DNA from: an uncultured Thermococci archaeon
Lineage (GTDB): Archaea; CAYQAE01; CAYVLA01
Direction: 5' to 3'
DNA: 64,000 bases
NCBI GenBank assembly: GCA_964549615.1
Contig: CAZJVP010000051.1
Coordinates: 1 to 64,000 of the forward strand
Positions 38,061 to 50,143 of the stretch are shown one piece after another. Each line of letters opens with the position of its first letter. Position 1 is the first letter of the stretch. The translations under genes and the position numbers were made by a program. The notes under the pieces were generated by a model. It worked only from the letters and a program-made list of their open reading frames with translations, was not told the origin of the DNA and searched no databases.

Positions 38061-38157
38061 TGGGCCCGCGGGGAATTGAACCCCGGACCTTTGCCTGGTG
38101 GTACGACCACCATCCGGTTATCAGCCGAACGCTCTAACCAAGCTGAGCCACGGGCCC
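38061..38157 (-). tRNA. tRNA-Ile(GAU) with a 22-nt insertion, probably an intron near 43/44 (about 38091-38112)
   Basis: GGGCCCG/CGGGCCC acceptor, TTCGG-CTGATAA-CCGGA arm, GGTTCAATT T-loop; insert hairpin TGGTGG-TCGTA-CCACCA. Confidence 0.88.
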
Positions 38158-38897: not shown

Positions 38898-39027
38898 GGG
38901 CCGATAGCTCAGCCTGGCAGAGCACCGCCTTTGGGAAGGCAGGTTTGCTTCTCGGCGAGCGCAAGGCGGGGGCCGCGGGACAGGCACGATGTCTCGGCCT
39001 GCGCGAATTCAACTCCCGCTCGGTCCA
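38898..39027 (+). tRNA. tRNA-Ala(CGC) with two introns (33/34: 38932-38959; 53/54: 38980-39007)
   Basis: G3:U70 acceptor pair; both inserts have BHB geometry; removal gives a canonical cloverleaf. Confidence 0.88.
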
Positions 39028-44563: not shown

Positions 44564-45580
44564 ATGAGCATGTGTACGAAACTGCCCTTTGGCAAGGTTG
44601 ACCCGGAGTGCCTGACCAGGTACGTCTTCGACCGGTTGCCGCCTCCCTCGGAGAGGGTCGTCGTTGGCCCGTCCGTGGGCGAGGATGCGGCGATCATAGA
44701 TATGGGCGGGCTGGAGGGGACCTACATGGTGGTCTCGTCGGACCCGATTTCCGGCGCGGAGAGTGAGATCGGGCGATACGCGGTCCACGTCAACGCAAAC
44801 GACGTCGCCACCGCTGGGGCAAGGCCGTCCCTGTTTGCGACAAACCTGATGATGTCTAGGTCGGCGACGCCCAGAGATCTTAAGGTCCTGTTCGGCCAGA
44901 TCTGTGAGGAATGCGCGGCACTGGGGATATCGATAGTTGGAGGCCACACCGAGGTATCGCCGATCGATAGGACCATAGTCTCCTCGACGATGATCGGGTT
45001 CGTCGCGCGGGATGCACTGGCTCGCAGGCCCATCGAACCCGGGGACGTGCTGATCCTAACCAAGGGGGCGGGGATAGAGGGCACCTCGATAGTGGCGTCG
45101 AAGAGGGGGGAGGAGCTCGCCCGTCTTCTCGGACGCGGTTTGATCAGGCGCGCCCGGGCCTTCTCACGCAAGATCAGCGTGGTGCCCGAGGCGATGATCG
45201 CGGCTGAAGAACGGGTCAAGAGGATGCACGACCCGACCGAAGGAGGGGTTCTCGGCGGCCTATTGGAGATGTGCGTGGCGAGCCGAATCTCGGCTCGCGT
45301 TGATCCCGCAAGGATTCCGATCGCCCCGGAAACGAAGGCAATTTGCGAACGCCTTGGCATCGACCCGCTGAAGCTGATAGGCTCCGGCAGCCTGCTCTGC
45401 ATTTTCTCGTCCCAGGCGGCGCGGAGGGTGCAACGAAGGTTCAGCAAAGCCGGGATTCCTTCAGCGCGGATAGGGATAGTGGAGAAGGTAGGCAAACCCA
45501 AGCTCGTGCTGATCGCTGAGTCTGGCGAGGAGGAGCTGAAGCAGTTCCCGCCCGACGAGCTCTGGGGCGCTATACTGTAG
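44564..45580 (+). CDS. AIR synthase/HypE-like family protein
   Basis: GEDAA, SSDPI, NANDVA, GGHTEV, MHDPTEGG. Confidence 0.9.
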   Translation: MSMCTKLPFGKVDPECLTRYVFDRLPPPSERVVVGPSVGEDAAIIDMGGLEGTYMVVSSDPISGAESEIGRYAVHVNANDVATAGARPSLFATNLMMSRSATPRDLKVLFGQICEECAALGISIVGGHTEVSPIDRTIVSSTMIGFVARDALARRPIEPGDVLILTKGAGIEGTSIVASKRGEELARLLGRGLIRRARAFSRKISVVPEAMIAAEERVKRMHDPTEGGVLGGLLEMCVASRISARVDPARIPIAPETKAICERLGIDPLKLIGSGSLLCIFSSQAARRVQRRFSKAGIPSARIGIVEKVGKPKLVLIAESGEEELKQFPPDELWGAIL

Positions 45581-46976
45581 GCTGCACGCGTGCGCCCGGG
45601 CCCCTTAGCTTGCCCTTGGCGGCGTCGTCGGCAACGGCCAAAGCTTTCTCGTAGAGCTTCTTATCAATGAATCCCTGGCTGACCAGGTCTATCAGGCTGG
45701 TCTCGTCGATGATCTCCGTCTTTCCTGAAGGCCTGATCACGACGTCTATCTCCAGGTCGATGTAGCGAACCTTTCCGGGATAGAACTCAACGGGGGTGTT
45801 TATGTTGATGAGTCTGCCCTTCAGGAGGTCCGCGGCCGAGTAGTAGGAGTTCACATAGTACCATTCGCCCCGTACCATCTCGGTGATCGCGTAATCGCCC
45901 TCCTCGATGTCCACGTTCAAGCCGTCATATCTTCCGCTGCCCACCATCTTCCTCCTCAGTACCAGCCGGTCTTCTCCCAGTTCCTGGACGAGGCCTTTGA
46001 GGTGGATGGTCTGGCCATCGGCCTTGACATGCTCCACCGTGTAGAAGTACGTGTCCAGCCTGCTGAAGATGGCCTCCTTCAGCGCCTTGTTTGCCTCATC
46101 CCTGCCAACCTTCTCCATCAACTTCTCAGCCACGTCGACCGCCACAGAGTACGTCTCGCCCATGGACTTTATCGCGTGGTGGTTCTCCACCGTGGGAGCA
46201 ACGGAGGATCTAAGCTCATCCAGCTTGCGCCTCGCCTCGCCACCGAACTCAAAGGAGATGAACTCCTCTCCGGAATAGAGCGGGTTGGACAGGGACATCT
46301 CGACCTCGTCGGCGGCCCTTCTGAGGTTGTCGACGTCCTGGGCAAGTTGCTGCGGATCAGCTCCTTCAGCTGCAGTTCTCCAGAGCAGGCCCCACCCTTC
46401 AGGCTTCAGCTGCTTGCCCAGGGCGATGAGCTCGTCTCGCTTCGGCCCCTTGATCTTCTTGCTTACCTTCACCCCGTCGTCCGAGAGCAAGACCGCGTAC
46501 TTGCCCGGAAGGTTTATCTTCATGTCCAGGACGGGCTTCTTCCCGCCCATGGGGATGGATCTGATCTGCACCTTGATGTCCTCGTCCTCCTTGATGACGC
46601 GCGTTGTGTTGGAGAACGGTAGGTAGCCGACCTCGTCGTCGATATCGACGAAGGCAGCTTTCAGCCTGCTGTCAACCTTCTGCACAGTGCCAAGGTAGAC
46701 CGCGTTGAGATTGATCTTGGAGTCGCGCTTCACGATGTCGAGGAAGCTTTCGATCAGCGCGTCCTTGACCGCCGAGACCGCCTCCAGTTCCCCGGATACC
46801 ACTATGCCGCTTCCGTCCTCGGTGCTGTTTATCTCAGCCCCCGCCGGGGAGAGGTCCCGGTCCGATTCGAATTTCTGGGCCAGCTCCTCGGAGGCCTGGC
46901 TGAGCGTGAAGCCCTTCTCAAGGAACAGCTTGGAGAGTGCGGTCGAGTATATGCCCCTTATTCGCACGGACGTCAA
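45570..46976 (-). CDS. RNase E/G-like RNA-binding protein FAU-1 (S1 plus DUF402)
   Basis: VRIRGIYSTAL, WRTAA, NINTPVE, YIDLEIDV. Confidence 0.88.
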   Translation of the reverse strand: MTSVRIRGIYSTALSKLFLEKGFTLSQASEELAQKFESDRDLSPAGAEINSTEDGSGIVVSGELEAVSAVKDALIESFLDIVKRDSKINLNAVYLGTVQKVDSRLKAAFVDIDDEVGYLPFSNTTRVIKEDEDIKVQIRSIPMGGKKPVLDMKINLPGKYAVLLSDDGVKVSKKIKGPKRDELIALGKQLKPEGWGLLWRTAAEGADPQQLAQDVDNLRRAADEVEMSLSNPLYSGEEFISFEFGGEARRKLDELRSSVAPTVENHHAIKSMGETYSVAVDVAEKLMEKVGRDEANKALKEAIFSRLDTYFYTVEHVKADGQTIHLKGLVQELGEDRLVLRRKMVGSGRYDGLNVDIEEGDYAITEMVRGEWYYVNSYYSAADLLKGRLININTPVEFYPGKVRYIDLEIDVVIRPSGKTEIIDETSLIDLVSQGFIDKKLYEKALAVADDAAKGKLRGPGARVQPTV

Positions 46977-46992
46977 TGTTCCACCACCGGTG

Positions 46993-47118
46993 TGGGGGGG
47001 CCGGGATTCTCAGAGAAAACCTTGGTTTTCGTCTTTTGAACCCGAGTCGCCGGCTCCCATTCGGCGATTCTAAGCCGGAAGGGTGTCCAAGTTATGGACC
47101 AGACTACCCTACCCCCCC
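46993..47118 (-). tRNA. tRNA-Pro(UGG) with three introns (22/23: 47083-47093; 33/34: 47060-47071; 59/60: 47007-47034)
   Basis: Removing three BHB-bounded inserts gives GGGGGGGTAGGGTAGTCTGGTCCATCCTTCCGGCTTTGGGAGCCGGCGACTCGGGTTCAAATCCCGGCCCCCCCA; TTTTTATA box upstream. Confidence 0.88.
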
Positions 47119-47397
47119 GGGTCTCTTTGTGGTCCGGCTTGGAGCCGGCTGGTATAAAAATTCTATCATGGGCAGGCCTTCAGGGCGGATTTCACCTTCC
47201 TTGGTCGATGCTGCCCTGCTGAGCATGCCTTCGCGAAGGACATGCCATCTCATAGCCGTCAGGTTGGGCACCAACGACCTGGCTGGGCATTTGTGGGGCT
47301 CGCGCGTGGCCTCTTGAGATCGCGGAAGCGGAGGAGCGATTTATCAACGCTCGGTCGGCCTAATCGACAGTTCCTCACATTCATCTTCGGTGATGCC

Positions 47398-47790
47398 GTG
47401 GCCATCTACCAGGGTAAGTCCGGAAGGAAGAGCACGGGCGGAAGGTACAAGCCCCACCACAAGAAGCGTCGGTTCGAGCTGGGCAGGTTCCCGGCTGAGA
47501 CGCGGATAGGGGAAAGGAAGCTGCGGATCATAAGGACCAGGGGGGGCAACATCAAGCAGAGGCTGATGGCCTCACAGTTCGCCAACCTCGTGGAATCCCC
47601 GGGCCAGAAGGCGAGGCTGGTCAAGATCCTCACCGTGAAGGACAATCCCGCCAGCCGGGATTTCACAAGGAGGAACATCATCACGAAGGGAGCCATAATC
47701 GAGACGGAGGCCGGGCTGGCCCGCGTGACGTCCCGGCCCGGGCAGGACGGCGTGGTGAACGCCGTCAAGGTTGAAGCGAAAAACGCCTAG
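47398..47790 (+). CDS. rps8e: 30S ribosomal protein S8e
   Basis: [35 protein letters not shown]. Confidence 0.96.
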
Positions 47791-48680
47791 GGTCTTATCC
47801 CCAGCTCGTCGATGGTCAACAGCGGCATCAGCTCGATCCCGAACTTTGACCTCAACAGCTCGGCTGCGCCCTCCTTTCTGTCCACAACGCAGGTTACCCT
47901 GACGACCCTGGCCCCCGCTGCCTGGATCGTCTCCACGCAACCCACCAGGGACCCTCCTGTGGTCGCAACATCATCGATCAGGAGCACCCTGTCTCCCTTG
48001 CCCATCTCCCCCTCCACCCGCTGCTGGGTGCCATGGGCCCTCTCGCCCTTCCTTATCATCGCGTAGGGCAGGTTTCCCCTCATCGCTACAGCGACGACCA
48101 GGGGTACGGCGCCAAGCTCGGGCCCCGCGACCATGTCGATATCCTTGAGGTAGAGTGCTTCGATGAGCCTGGAAACGAGTGAAAGAGTCCGGGGGCGTGT
48201 GATTATCCTCTTCATGTTCAGATAGTAGGTGCTCTTTCTACCTGAGGTCAGGGTGAAATCGCCGAACAAGAGGGCGTCCTGCCTCGTGATTCGTATCAGC
48301 TCCTCCTTGAGTTCATCCACGCCCAGAATTTCGTACTCGTCGTAGCAGGAGGTATATCCTTTGTGGCACGCGGGCCCGGCCTGCTCGACATCCAGCAGAA
48401 TCGAGTCTCCGTCGCAGTCGATCTTCAGACCCTTGAGGGCCTGCGTCGACCCGCTTTCCTCTCCCTTCACCCACAGTTTCCGCCTGCTCGTGCTCCAGTA
48501 GGTCACCTTTCCGGTGGTCAGGGTTGCGAGGACGGCCGCCCTGTCCATGTAGGCCTGCATGAGGATTTGGCCGGTTGCCCAATCTCGAGCGATCGCTACC
48601 ACAAGATCATTTTCCGCCAGCCTGCGCTTGAAATCGAGCCTTTCGAGCACCTTGTTGGCTTCCTGCGTGGAAAGCTTCAT
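47787..48680 (-). CDS. Fusion of phosphoribosyl-AMP cyclohydrolase (HisI) and orotate phosphoribosyltransferase (PyrE)
   Basis: LW.KGEESG, DCDGD, ACHKG..SC, then [23 protein letters not shown] in one frame. Confidence 0.9.
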
Positions 48681-48897
48681 TGTCCCGCCTTTGCCGACAG
48701 GATGATTTAACGCTTTTCGACCTCGAGCTGGTCGCGTTCTAAAGATCTGCCTGCGTCTTCTCCCTAAGGCGGATCTGGCGAAATGCGAAAGGAATGATCT
48801 CTGCTTCGGCCCTGGCGCCTTCACAGTTAAGAGACGCGTTGCGTGACACGGATCGTTGGCTTGCTCTAATCGCGATCTTGGTGGAAGTCATCATGCA

Positions 48898-50050: not shown

Positions 50051-50143
50051 GCCGAGGTAGCTCAGAGGGAGAGCGCCGGACTGAAGGCCTTCGAACAGGG
50101 GTCCGACATCCGGGTGTCGCGAGTTCGATTCTCGCCCTCGGCA
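50051..50143 (+). tRNA. tRNA-Phe(GAA) with canonical 37/38 intron (50087-50107)
   Basis: GCCGAGG/CCTCGGC acceptor; CCGGA-CTGAAG^A-TCCGG; GTTCGATT T-loop. Confidence 0.9.

Follow-up and report, generated by a model that had tools for sequence, protein, structure and literature searches.

The window analysed in this study, a 64,000-nt stretch of contig CAZJVP010000051.1 (positions 1 to 64,000) from an uncultured hot-spring archaeon of the Thermococci, contains a tRNA-Pro(UGG) gene that is interrupted by three inserts. It is very probably a functional three-intron gene whose transcript would be spliced by a tRNA-splicing endonuclease and the ligase RtcB, and it is the only gene for this isoacceptor found in the genome. 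An earlier reading made from the letters of the window alone (hereafter the sequence-only reading) had proposed inserts of 11 nt at tRNA positions 22/23, 12 nt at 33/34 and 28 nt at 59/60, with which the result of ARAGORN on the spliced form agreed. The parts of the gene and of its upstream region are listed below. Bases of the gene are counted from base 1 at window position 47118, and the insert sites are given in standard tRNA numbering.

46993..47118 (-): whole tRNA-Pro(UGG) gene, 126 nt, four exons and three introns, CCA not encoded
47094..47118 (-): exon 1, tRNA positions 1-22 (acceptor 5' strand, U8, A9, D-stem 5' strand, D-loop, position 22)
47083..47093 (-): intron 1, bases 26-36, 11 nt, at 22/23, relaxed helix-loop form
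47072..47082 (-): exon 2, positions 23-33 (D-stem 3' strand, position 26, anticodon-stem 5' strand, U32, U33)
47060..47071 (-): intron 2, bases 48-59, 12 nt, at 33/34, bulge-helix-loop form
47035..47059 (-): exon 3, positions 34-59 (anticodon UGG, G37, A38, anticodon-stem 3' strand, 4-nt variable loop, T-stem 5' strand, first six T-loop bases)
47007..47034 (-): intron 3, bases 85-112, 28 nt, at 59/60, full bulge-helix-bulge
46993..47006 (-): exon 4, positions 60-73 (U60, T-stem 3' strand, acceptor 3' strand, discriminator A73)
47153..47160 (-): likely archaeal TATA element, a TTTTTATA box 35-42 nt upstream of the mature 5' end

Removal of all three inserts leaves 75 nt that ARAGORN calls tRNA-Pro(tgg) and in which all stems are paired. 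In this spliced form the acceptor stem has 7 bp and the anticodon and T stems have 5 bp each; the anticodon loop and T-loop read TTTGGGA and TTCAAAT, respectively. When the eight combinations of insert removal were run through ARAGORN, only full removal produced Pro(tgg) without a leftover intron. The spliced D-stem consists of three pairs plus U13/U22, an arrangement identical to that of a paralog on contig C67. BLAST of the spliced form against the genome mapped its bases 1-25 to exon 1 and recovered exons 2, 3 and 4 likewise. Moreover, the spliced form carries G35, G36, A73 and G1-C72, which we take to be the proline identity bases for archaeal ProRS.

The other two proline isoacceptor genes of the genome, identified by BLAST of the spliced form and by the genome-wide scan described below, are also interrupted. 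The Pro(GGG) gene (contig C67:3-94) contains one 17-nt intron at 32/33. Its D-arm is uninterrupted and differs from the spliced UGG D-arm at a single D-loop base. The Pro(CGG) gene (contig C88:77580-77691 (-)), which was read by eye, contains two introns: one of 15 nt at 22/23, whose helix is GTCC/GGGC, and one of 22 nt at 59/60, whose helix is TTCA/TGAA and which has a 5-bp inner helix. The UGG gene unites intron positions that are found singly or paired in these sister isoacceptors. No second gene with a TGG anticodon was found among the 35 tRNAs identified with Rfam, the ARAGORN calls and the 31 high scorers of the scan. Two ARAGORN calls labelled Pro(tgg) were on re-reading a Lys(CUU) gene and an Ala(CGC) gene with G3:U70.

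Splice motifs and splicing enzymes

All three introns have four of four helix pairs in this genome (GTCC/GGAC, CGGC/GCCG and TTCA/TGAG, the last with one G-U pair), and each cut is placed two bases 3' of a strand of such a 4-bp helix. The sequence-only reading quoted six motif strings (GTCC-ATA/GGAC-ACC, CGGC-TTA/GCCG-AAT and TTCA-AAA/TGAG-AAT), all of which are present where it placed them. Of its description of each insert as a 4-bp helix followed by 3-nt bulges on both strands, the helix stood for every insert, and the paired bulges stood for insert 3 and not for inserts 1 and 2. The latter two lack an inner helix, and their 5' splice-site "bulge" is part of a 7- or 8-nt hairpin loop.

Intron 3 forms a strict bulge-helix-bulge motif with outer and inner helices (hBHBh'): the T-stem serves as its outer helix, the central helix TTCA/TGAG is accompanied by the bulges AAA and AAU, and the inner hairpin has 8 bp. 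Introns 1 and 2 are of the relaxed helix-bulge-helix (hBH) or bulge-helix-loop (BHL) type, because they have no inner helix and their 5' cut falls in a hairpin loop. At intron 1, exon GTCC pairs with intron GGAC, the 5' cut lies inside a 7-nt loop and an unpaired 3' bulge of 2-3 nt precedes the D-stem. At intron 2, anticodon-stem bases 28-31 (CGGC) pair with intron GCCG, a 3-nt AAU bulge is found at the 3' cut and the outer helix is short (C-G, U-G, U-G). The splice form of intron 2 needs the 5' strand of the anticodon stem to be paired to the intron, which excludes the mature anticodon stem.

The three motifs extend over bases 20-37, 39-63 and 74-118, respectively, and one secondary structure accommodates all of them, with a predicted energy of -40 to -50 kcal/mol vs -57.6 kcal/mol for the minimum-energy fold. 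The idea in the sequence-only reading that neighboring motifs may force ordered splicing was not supported. With no overlap between the motifs and one predicted structure able to hold all three, no order of removal is forced, and ordered splicing as a necessity is ruled out.

Search of the genome with PF01974 identified only two multi-unit proteins, of 393 and 403 amino acid residues (aa), and no (alpha-beta)2 heterotetramer. The 403-aa protein (C90:41466-42674 (-)) matches over its full length the epsilon2 endonuclease of Candidatus Micrarchaeum acidiphilum (ARMAN-2; 4FZ2) with an E-value of 2e-73. Conserved in this protein are Y160/K161 of the ARMAN-specific loop, the catalytic residues Y236/H251/K282, and also R275 and W384, as these residues are assigned in the available parts of PMC12397907 and PMC6379350. 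The 393-aa protein on contig C88 (L018 1456-2637 (-)) consists of two endonuclease units. Its C-terminal unit aligns to the alpha subunit of A. pernix (E 2e-43) with one 1-residue gap, which lies outside the Crenarchaea-specific loop, and a lysine is kept at the K44 position of that loop. The catalytic unit of this enzyme is closest to the crenarchaeal alpha subunit. RtcB ligase is also encoded (E 1.8e-182). Judged from these alignments, both endonucleases retain the loop residues linked to broad substrate range. According to the part of PMC3239211 at hand, the ARMAN-2 epsilon2 enzyme cleaves a 13-nt relaxed intron at 59/60 in vitro, which is the shortest archaeal example that we found in print.

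Both endonuclease genes were also found in the three other genomes of the family. The epsilon2-type enzyme is present in 4 of 4 family genomes, and the identities of those of the relatives were 66-76%. It was not found in the class-level relative G004, in which one frame of about 190 aa shows endonuclease similarity. In a sample of 201 genomes, the full-length epsilon2 type was otherwise identified only in 11 genomes of 0.7-1.1 Mb, whose homologs were 35-41% identical to the enzyme of this genome.

With these enzymes, the gene could be expressed as follows. Transcription from the TATA-like box about 35-42 nt upstream would yield a precursor of about 126 nt plus a leader, from which the tRNA-splicing endonuclease would excise the three introns. 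RtcB would join the four exons into a 75-nt tRNA, and CCA would probably be added after splicing, because the gene encodes none. The relaxed introns 1 and 2 may be cut by one or both of the loop-lysine endonucleases.

Conservation in relatives and metagenomes

In a DNA search of 61 genomes, full-length matches to the 126-nt gene were found in the other three family members, with identities of 91, 88 and 85%, and no match was found in the class-level relative G004. Five further copies, 126-128 nt long and all with three inserts, were found in metagenome contigs by a pattern search that tolerated the absence of inserts 1 and 2 (a gap length of 0 was allowed). The three inserts are at the same places in 9 of 9 sequences from different assemblies, eight of which are distinct.

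In the alignment of the four genomes, variation affects only 4 of the 75 exon columns, against 21 of the 51 columns in the introns and 37 of the 45 in the flanks (19/22 on one side and 18/23 on the other). The variable columns number 4/11, 6/12 and 11/28 in introns 1, 2 and 3, respectively. The varying exon columns are D-loop positions 16/17 and T-stem positions 49/50, where TC and CT alternate and both pair with G64/G65. Exons 2 and 4 are invariant in all nine sequences. As judged from these counts, the exons are under purifying selection.

Within introns 1 and 2, the helix strands are fixed, as are the cut-adjacent bases other than the last one of intron 2, which varies along with the loop bases. 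The helix of intron 1 is invariant in the eight distinct sequences and its loop bases 27-30 vary, and the six bases before its 3' cut, GGACAC, are invariant in all nine sequences. Similarly, the helix of intron 2 is invariant and its loop bases 49-53 vary, the intron being 11 nt long in the relative G003. The inner helix of intron 3 is maintained despite changes, including one double-sided change. In the nine sequences, 97.5% of the cells in the splice-ready structure pair. Moreover, a TTTTTATA-like box is found 35-48 nt upstream in 9 of 9 sequences with otherwise diverged flanks, which would fit an archaeal promoter with a short leader. In the eight orthologous copies this box reads TTTTTAT(A/T/G) or TTTTTAAA.

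The class-level relative G004 contains a Pro-like tRNA gene of 111 nt (C17:11216-11326 (+); L043 1501-1611) with an uninterrupted D-arm and an encoded CCA. It has inserts in the anticodon loop and the variable region, and no parse led to a 7-nt anticodon loop with U33.

Points against the splicing model and alternative readings

The junctions were assessed with a script similar to SPLITS, which lists every excision for which the tetranucleotide that ends two bases ahead of the 5' cut can pair with the tetranucleotide that ends two bases ahead of the 3' cut, and then scores the spliced product as a cloverleaf. All three junctions obey this 4-bp helix rule, for which chance would allow about (6/16)^4 per junction. 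On the 126 nt alone, introns 2 and 3 were recovered in 5 of the 5 top solutions.

Several results weigh against a functional gene with three endonuclease-spliced introns. The script ties intron 1 between excision of bases 26-36 (11 nt) and of bases 23-34 (12 nt), and only the paralogs break the tie. Intron 1 has no contiguous outer helix, and the predicted minimum-energy fold puts its 3' cut within a D-stem-like helix. In the 37 C model, the pairs of the intron 2 splice form have a probability of about 0.25 vs 0.67 for the anticodon stem, and the strict motif of intron 3 lies 5.7 kcal/mol above the minimum-energy fold. Covariation is uninformative for H1, H2 and the outer helix of intron 2, which never vary in the eight distinct sequences. 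Of 35 pairs, only one shows a double-sided change, and the observed covariation score was attained in 16 of 500 shuffles. The fourth central pair of intron 3 is an A opposite a G in 5 of the 8 distinct orthologs. In addition, a second, hidden UGG copy may exist, because the scan recovers 25 of the 35 Rfam tRNAs and the assembly consists of 104 contigs. Finally, none of the 22 sequencing runs listed is on record as RNA.

Some of these results are shared by a reading in which the tRNA is real and its processing differs, with intron 1 cut elsewhere (e.g., at 23-34), intron 1 retained as a D-arm hairpin, or one insert removed by something other than the endonuclease. The equal scores of the two excisions and the lack of a contiguous outer helix at intron 1 are compatible with it, as is the predicted precursor fold, in which GGGU pairs perfectly with ACCC around the insert hairpin. 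However, with 23-34 excised, the D-stem and the anticodon stem are separated by two bases, and the helix used, CUGG/UUGG, has three G-U pairs; if the insert were retained, G19 of the D-loop would be hidden within a helix. Excision of 26-36, by comparison, reproduces the D-arm of Pro(GGG) and places the intron at the junction that is also used in Pro(CGG), and the GGACAC before its 3' cut does not vary. The tie at intron 1 is therefore resolved for 26-36, because the Pro(GGG) D-arm is uninterrupted and the Pro(CGG) intron is at 22/23. Different processing of this tRNA is thus considered unlikely.

The gene might instead be a decaying tRNA-Pro pseudogene with accumulated insertions. Neither ARAGORN nor Rfam detects it. 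ARAGORN reported two tRNAs in the window and, with or without its intron mode, nothing at the locus. The sole Rfam match at E-values up to 10 in positions 46700-47400 was Parecho_CRE (E 7.2), which is attributed to chance, and none of the 35 tRNAs that the Rfam tRNA model identified in the 3.2-Mb genome of 104 contigs is at the locus. The lack of RNA among the listed runs is also compatible with decay. A decaying gene, however, does not account for 71 of 75 exon columns that are invariant in four genomes with flanks diverged at 37 of 45, for conserved helix strands of all three inserts in 9 of 9 sequences, or for the conserved TATA-like box. Furthermore, an intact tRNA-Pro(UGG) gene elsewhere, which the sequence-only reading had named, together with the lack of a spliced product, as the mark of a pseudogene, was not found among the Rfam hits and the re-read ARAGORN calls. 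Decay is therefore regarded as very improbable.

The whole genome and a reversed-genome decoy were processed with the same pipeline. From 30,230 T-arm candidates in the real genome the pipeline derived 835 spans with U8 and an acceptor stem of 7 bp, and it resolved 341 of them. Thirty-one of these scored at least 33; they comprise 25 of the 35 Rfam tRNAs and six new genes, including the one described here, and all 31 are tRNAs. In the decoy, 0 of 351 resolved spans reached 33, with a maximum of 32.0. Although three free excisions can push many sequences towards a cloverleaf, chance resemblance in intergenic DNA is opposed by this comparison and by junctions that are fixed by the cloverleaf and the paralogs and also obey the independent helix rule, and it is counted as refuted by the conservation of the gene in eight other assemblies, so that it hardly merits credence. 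The sequence-only reading of the inserts as non-canonical introns was borne out by the spliced cloverleaf, the eight orthologs, the Pro(GGG) and Pro(CGG) paralogs and the splicing-enzyme genes.

Other interrupted tRNA genes and comparison with known systems

Introns were found, from gene length and by eye, in 24 of the 35 tRNAs identified with Rfam, and they were also found in seven genes missed by Rfam. By this heuristic count, about 31 of 42 assignable tRNA genes contain introns, with roughly 47 introns or about 1.1 per gene. Because the script restricts long variable arms to Leu and Ser and wrongly splits single introns of the variable region in two (Met on contig C79 and Ile in the window), its multi-intron counts were corrected by eye and are approximate. 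The intron mode of ARAGORN was rejected as a genome inventory; several of its 47 calls had "introns" of 200-2600 nt and wrong anticodons. The relatives had 28-37 Rfam tRNA hits each. Five other genes with scores of at least 33, all missed by Rfam, missed or miscalled by ARAGORN and above the decoy maximum, are as follows.

C75:12828-12961 (-): Gln(CUG), apparently three introns
C48:29522-29666 (-): Gln(UUG), apparently three introns
C78:30057-30178 (+): His(GUG), two or three introns
C76:22638-22746 (-): Gly(GCC), two introns
C88:77580-77691 (-): Pro(CGG), two introns

Three more tRNA genes of the window are also interrupted. A tRNA-Ala(CGC) gene with G3:U70 (38898-39027 (+), 130 nt), miscalled Pro(tgg) by the intron mode of ARAGORN, contains two 28-nt introns at 33/34 and 53/54. 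A tRNA-Ile(GAU) gene (38061-38157 (-)) has a variable-region insert of about 22 nt that is poorly described by the 4-bp helix rule and was split by the script into two 11-nt pieces. A tRNA-Phe(GAA) gene (50051-50143 (+)), labelled Leu(aag) by default ARAGORN, contains a canonical 21-nt intron at 37/38. Elsewhere in the genome, a tRNA-Asp(GUC) gene (C78:980-1074 (-)) has a D-region intron of about 22 nt and five apparent extra bases in the acceptor 3' strand, with 5 of 7 acceptor pairs in the best parse.

As the sequence-only reading stated, the tRNA-Pro(UGG) gene sits between FAU-1 and rps8e. A FAU-1-like gene with the Pfam domains DUF402 and RNase_E_G is at 45570-46976 (-), and the gene for ribosomal protein S8e lies within 47242-47790 (+). 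A further frame at 47787-48824 (-) encodes 345 aa and fuses phosphoribosyl-AMP cyclohydrolase (HisI) and phosphoribosyltransferase domains.

The three-intron type of tRNA gene is already known from other archaeal groups; its lineage and enzyme setting here are not yet described. One possible explanation, which we put forward tentatively, is that this family underwent its own Thermoproteales-like burst of tRNA introns, enabled by two broad-range endonucleases: the epsilon2 type, which would otherwise be confined to tiny DPANN genomes and possibly came from them, and the two-unit enzyme with its crenarchaeal-type loop. It is based on the estimate of about 1.1 introns per gene, on at least three triple-intron genes and on at least six tRNA genes invisible to Rfam and at best miscalled by ARAGORN. 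If it is true, the helix-loop introns of 11 and 12 nt would rank with the smallest substrates that an archaeal enzyme has in nature. The gene extends heavy tRNA disruption, including the three-intron maximum, to a lineage beyond Thermoproteales and DPANN. The pairing of two endonuclease types is unreported and bears on the published idea that intron load follows the substrate range of the endonuclease. Introns 1 and 2 would also be handy minimal substrates for probing the requirements of the epsilon2 and the loop-bearing two-unit enzymes. Moreover, automatic annotation of this genome would report missing tRNAs for proline (UGG, CGG), glutamine, histidine and glycine (GCC).

In the available parts of the literature, three introns are the stated maximum per archaeal tRNA gene and occur mainly in Thermoproteales, where close-set introns that require sequential removal are also described (PMC8450103; PMC4033280; PMC3239211). 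Ordered splicing, as raised in the sequence-only reading, is thus a known possibility, although the present gene does not demand it. The remark in the sequence-only reading that triple-intron tRNAs are mostly from Thermoproteales is consistent with what is accessible of PMC8450103 and PMC4033280, in which Pyrobaculum calidifontis is given as having 71 introns in 46 tRNA genes. Similar to Thermoproteales as portrayed in those parts, the present genome has up to three endonuclease-type introns per gene, non-canonical sites in the D-arm, anticodon arm and T-loop, relaxed motifs and genes that are missed by standard tRNA finders, and its estimated 1.1 introns per gene compare with a Thermoproteales average of 0.84. 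Different from Thermoproteales are the host lineage, in which a same-genus relative is labelled Candidatus Hadarchaeota and the family genomes are 2.4-4 Mb, and the enzymes, which are of the two-unit and epsilon2 types instead of (alpha-beta)2.

ARMAN-1 and ARMAN-2 are listed among the archaea with multiple-intron tRNAs in a 2014 review (PMC4033280, available in part). Similar to ARMAN-2, as far as the accessible text of PMC3239211, PMC3488258 and PMC12397907 describes it, the present genome combines an epsilon2 homolog with introns at 59/60 and 53/54 and with short relaxed introns. Different from ARMAN-2, this genome is 3.2 Mb instead of about 1 Mb and encodes a second endonuclease.

Hadesarchaea archaeon YNP_N21, which shares the phylum-level label, also shows increased tRNA gene disruption (PMC5829648, available in part). 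Its enzyme is described there as alpha4 with an L3 loop, whereas the present family has the epsilon2-type and two-unit enzymes, and section 16 of that paper makes no mention of three-intron genes for Hadesarchaea. In the literature found on tRNA introns or endonucleases of Hadarchaeota/Hadesarchaea, the only mention was that of Kaneta 2018, and no publication on three-intron tRNAs or on an epsilon2 enzyme of these groups was found.

Outside the archaea, the available part of PMC3728597 reports introns of 11 bp in the red alga C. merolae and, for its tRNA-Ile(UAU), a preferred order of intron removal measured by reverse-transcription PCR (RT-PCR). Similar to the gene described here, the single gene for tRNA-Ile(UAU) of C. 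merolae is interrupted three times, in its D-arm, its anticodon loop and its T-loop (PMC3728597). Different from it, the algal gene is a eukaryotic nuclear gene with three strict hBHBh' motifs, whereas two of the three motifs of the archaeal tRNA-Pro(UGG) gene are relaxed.

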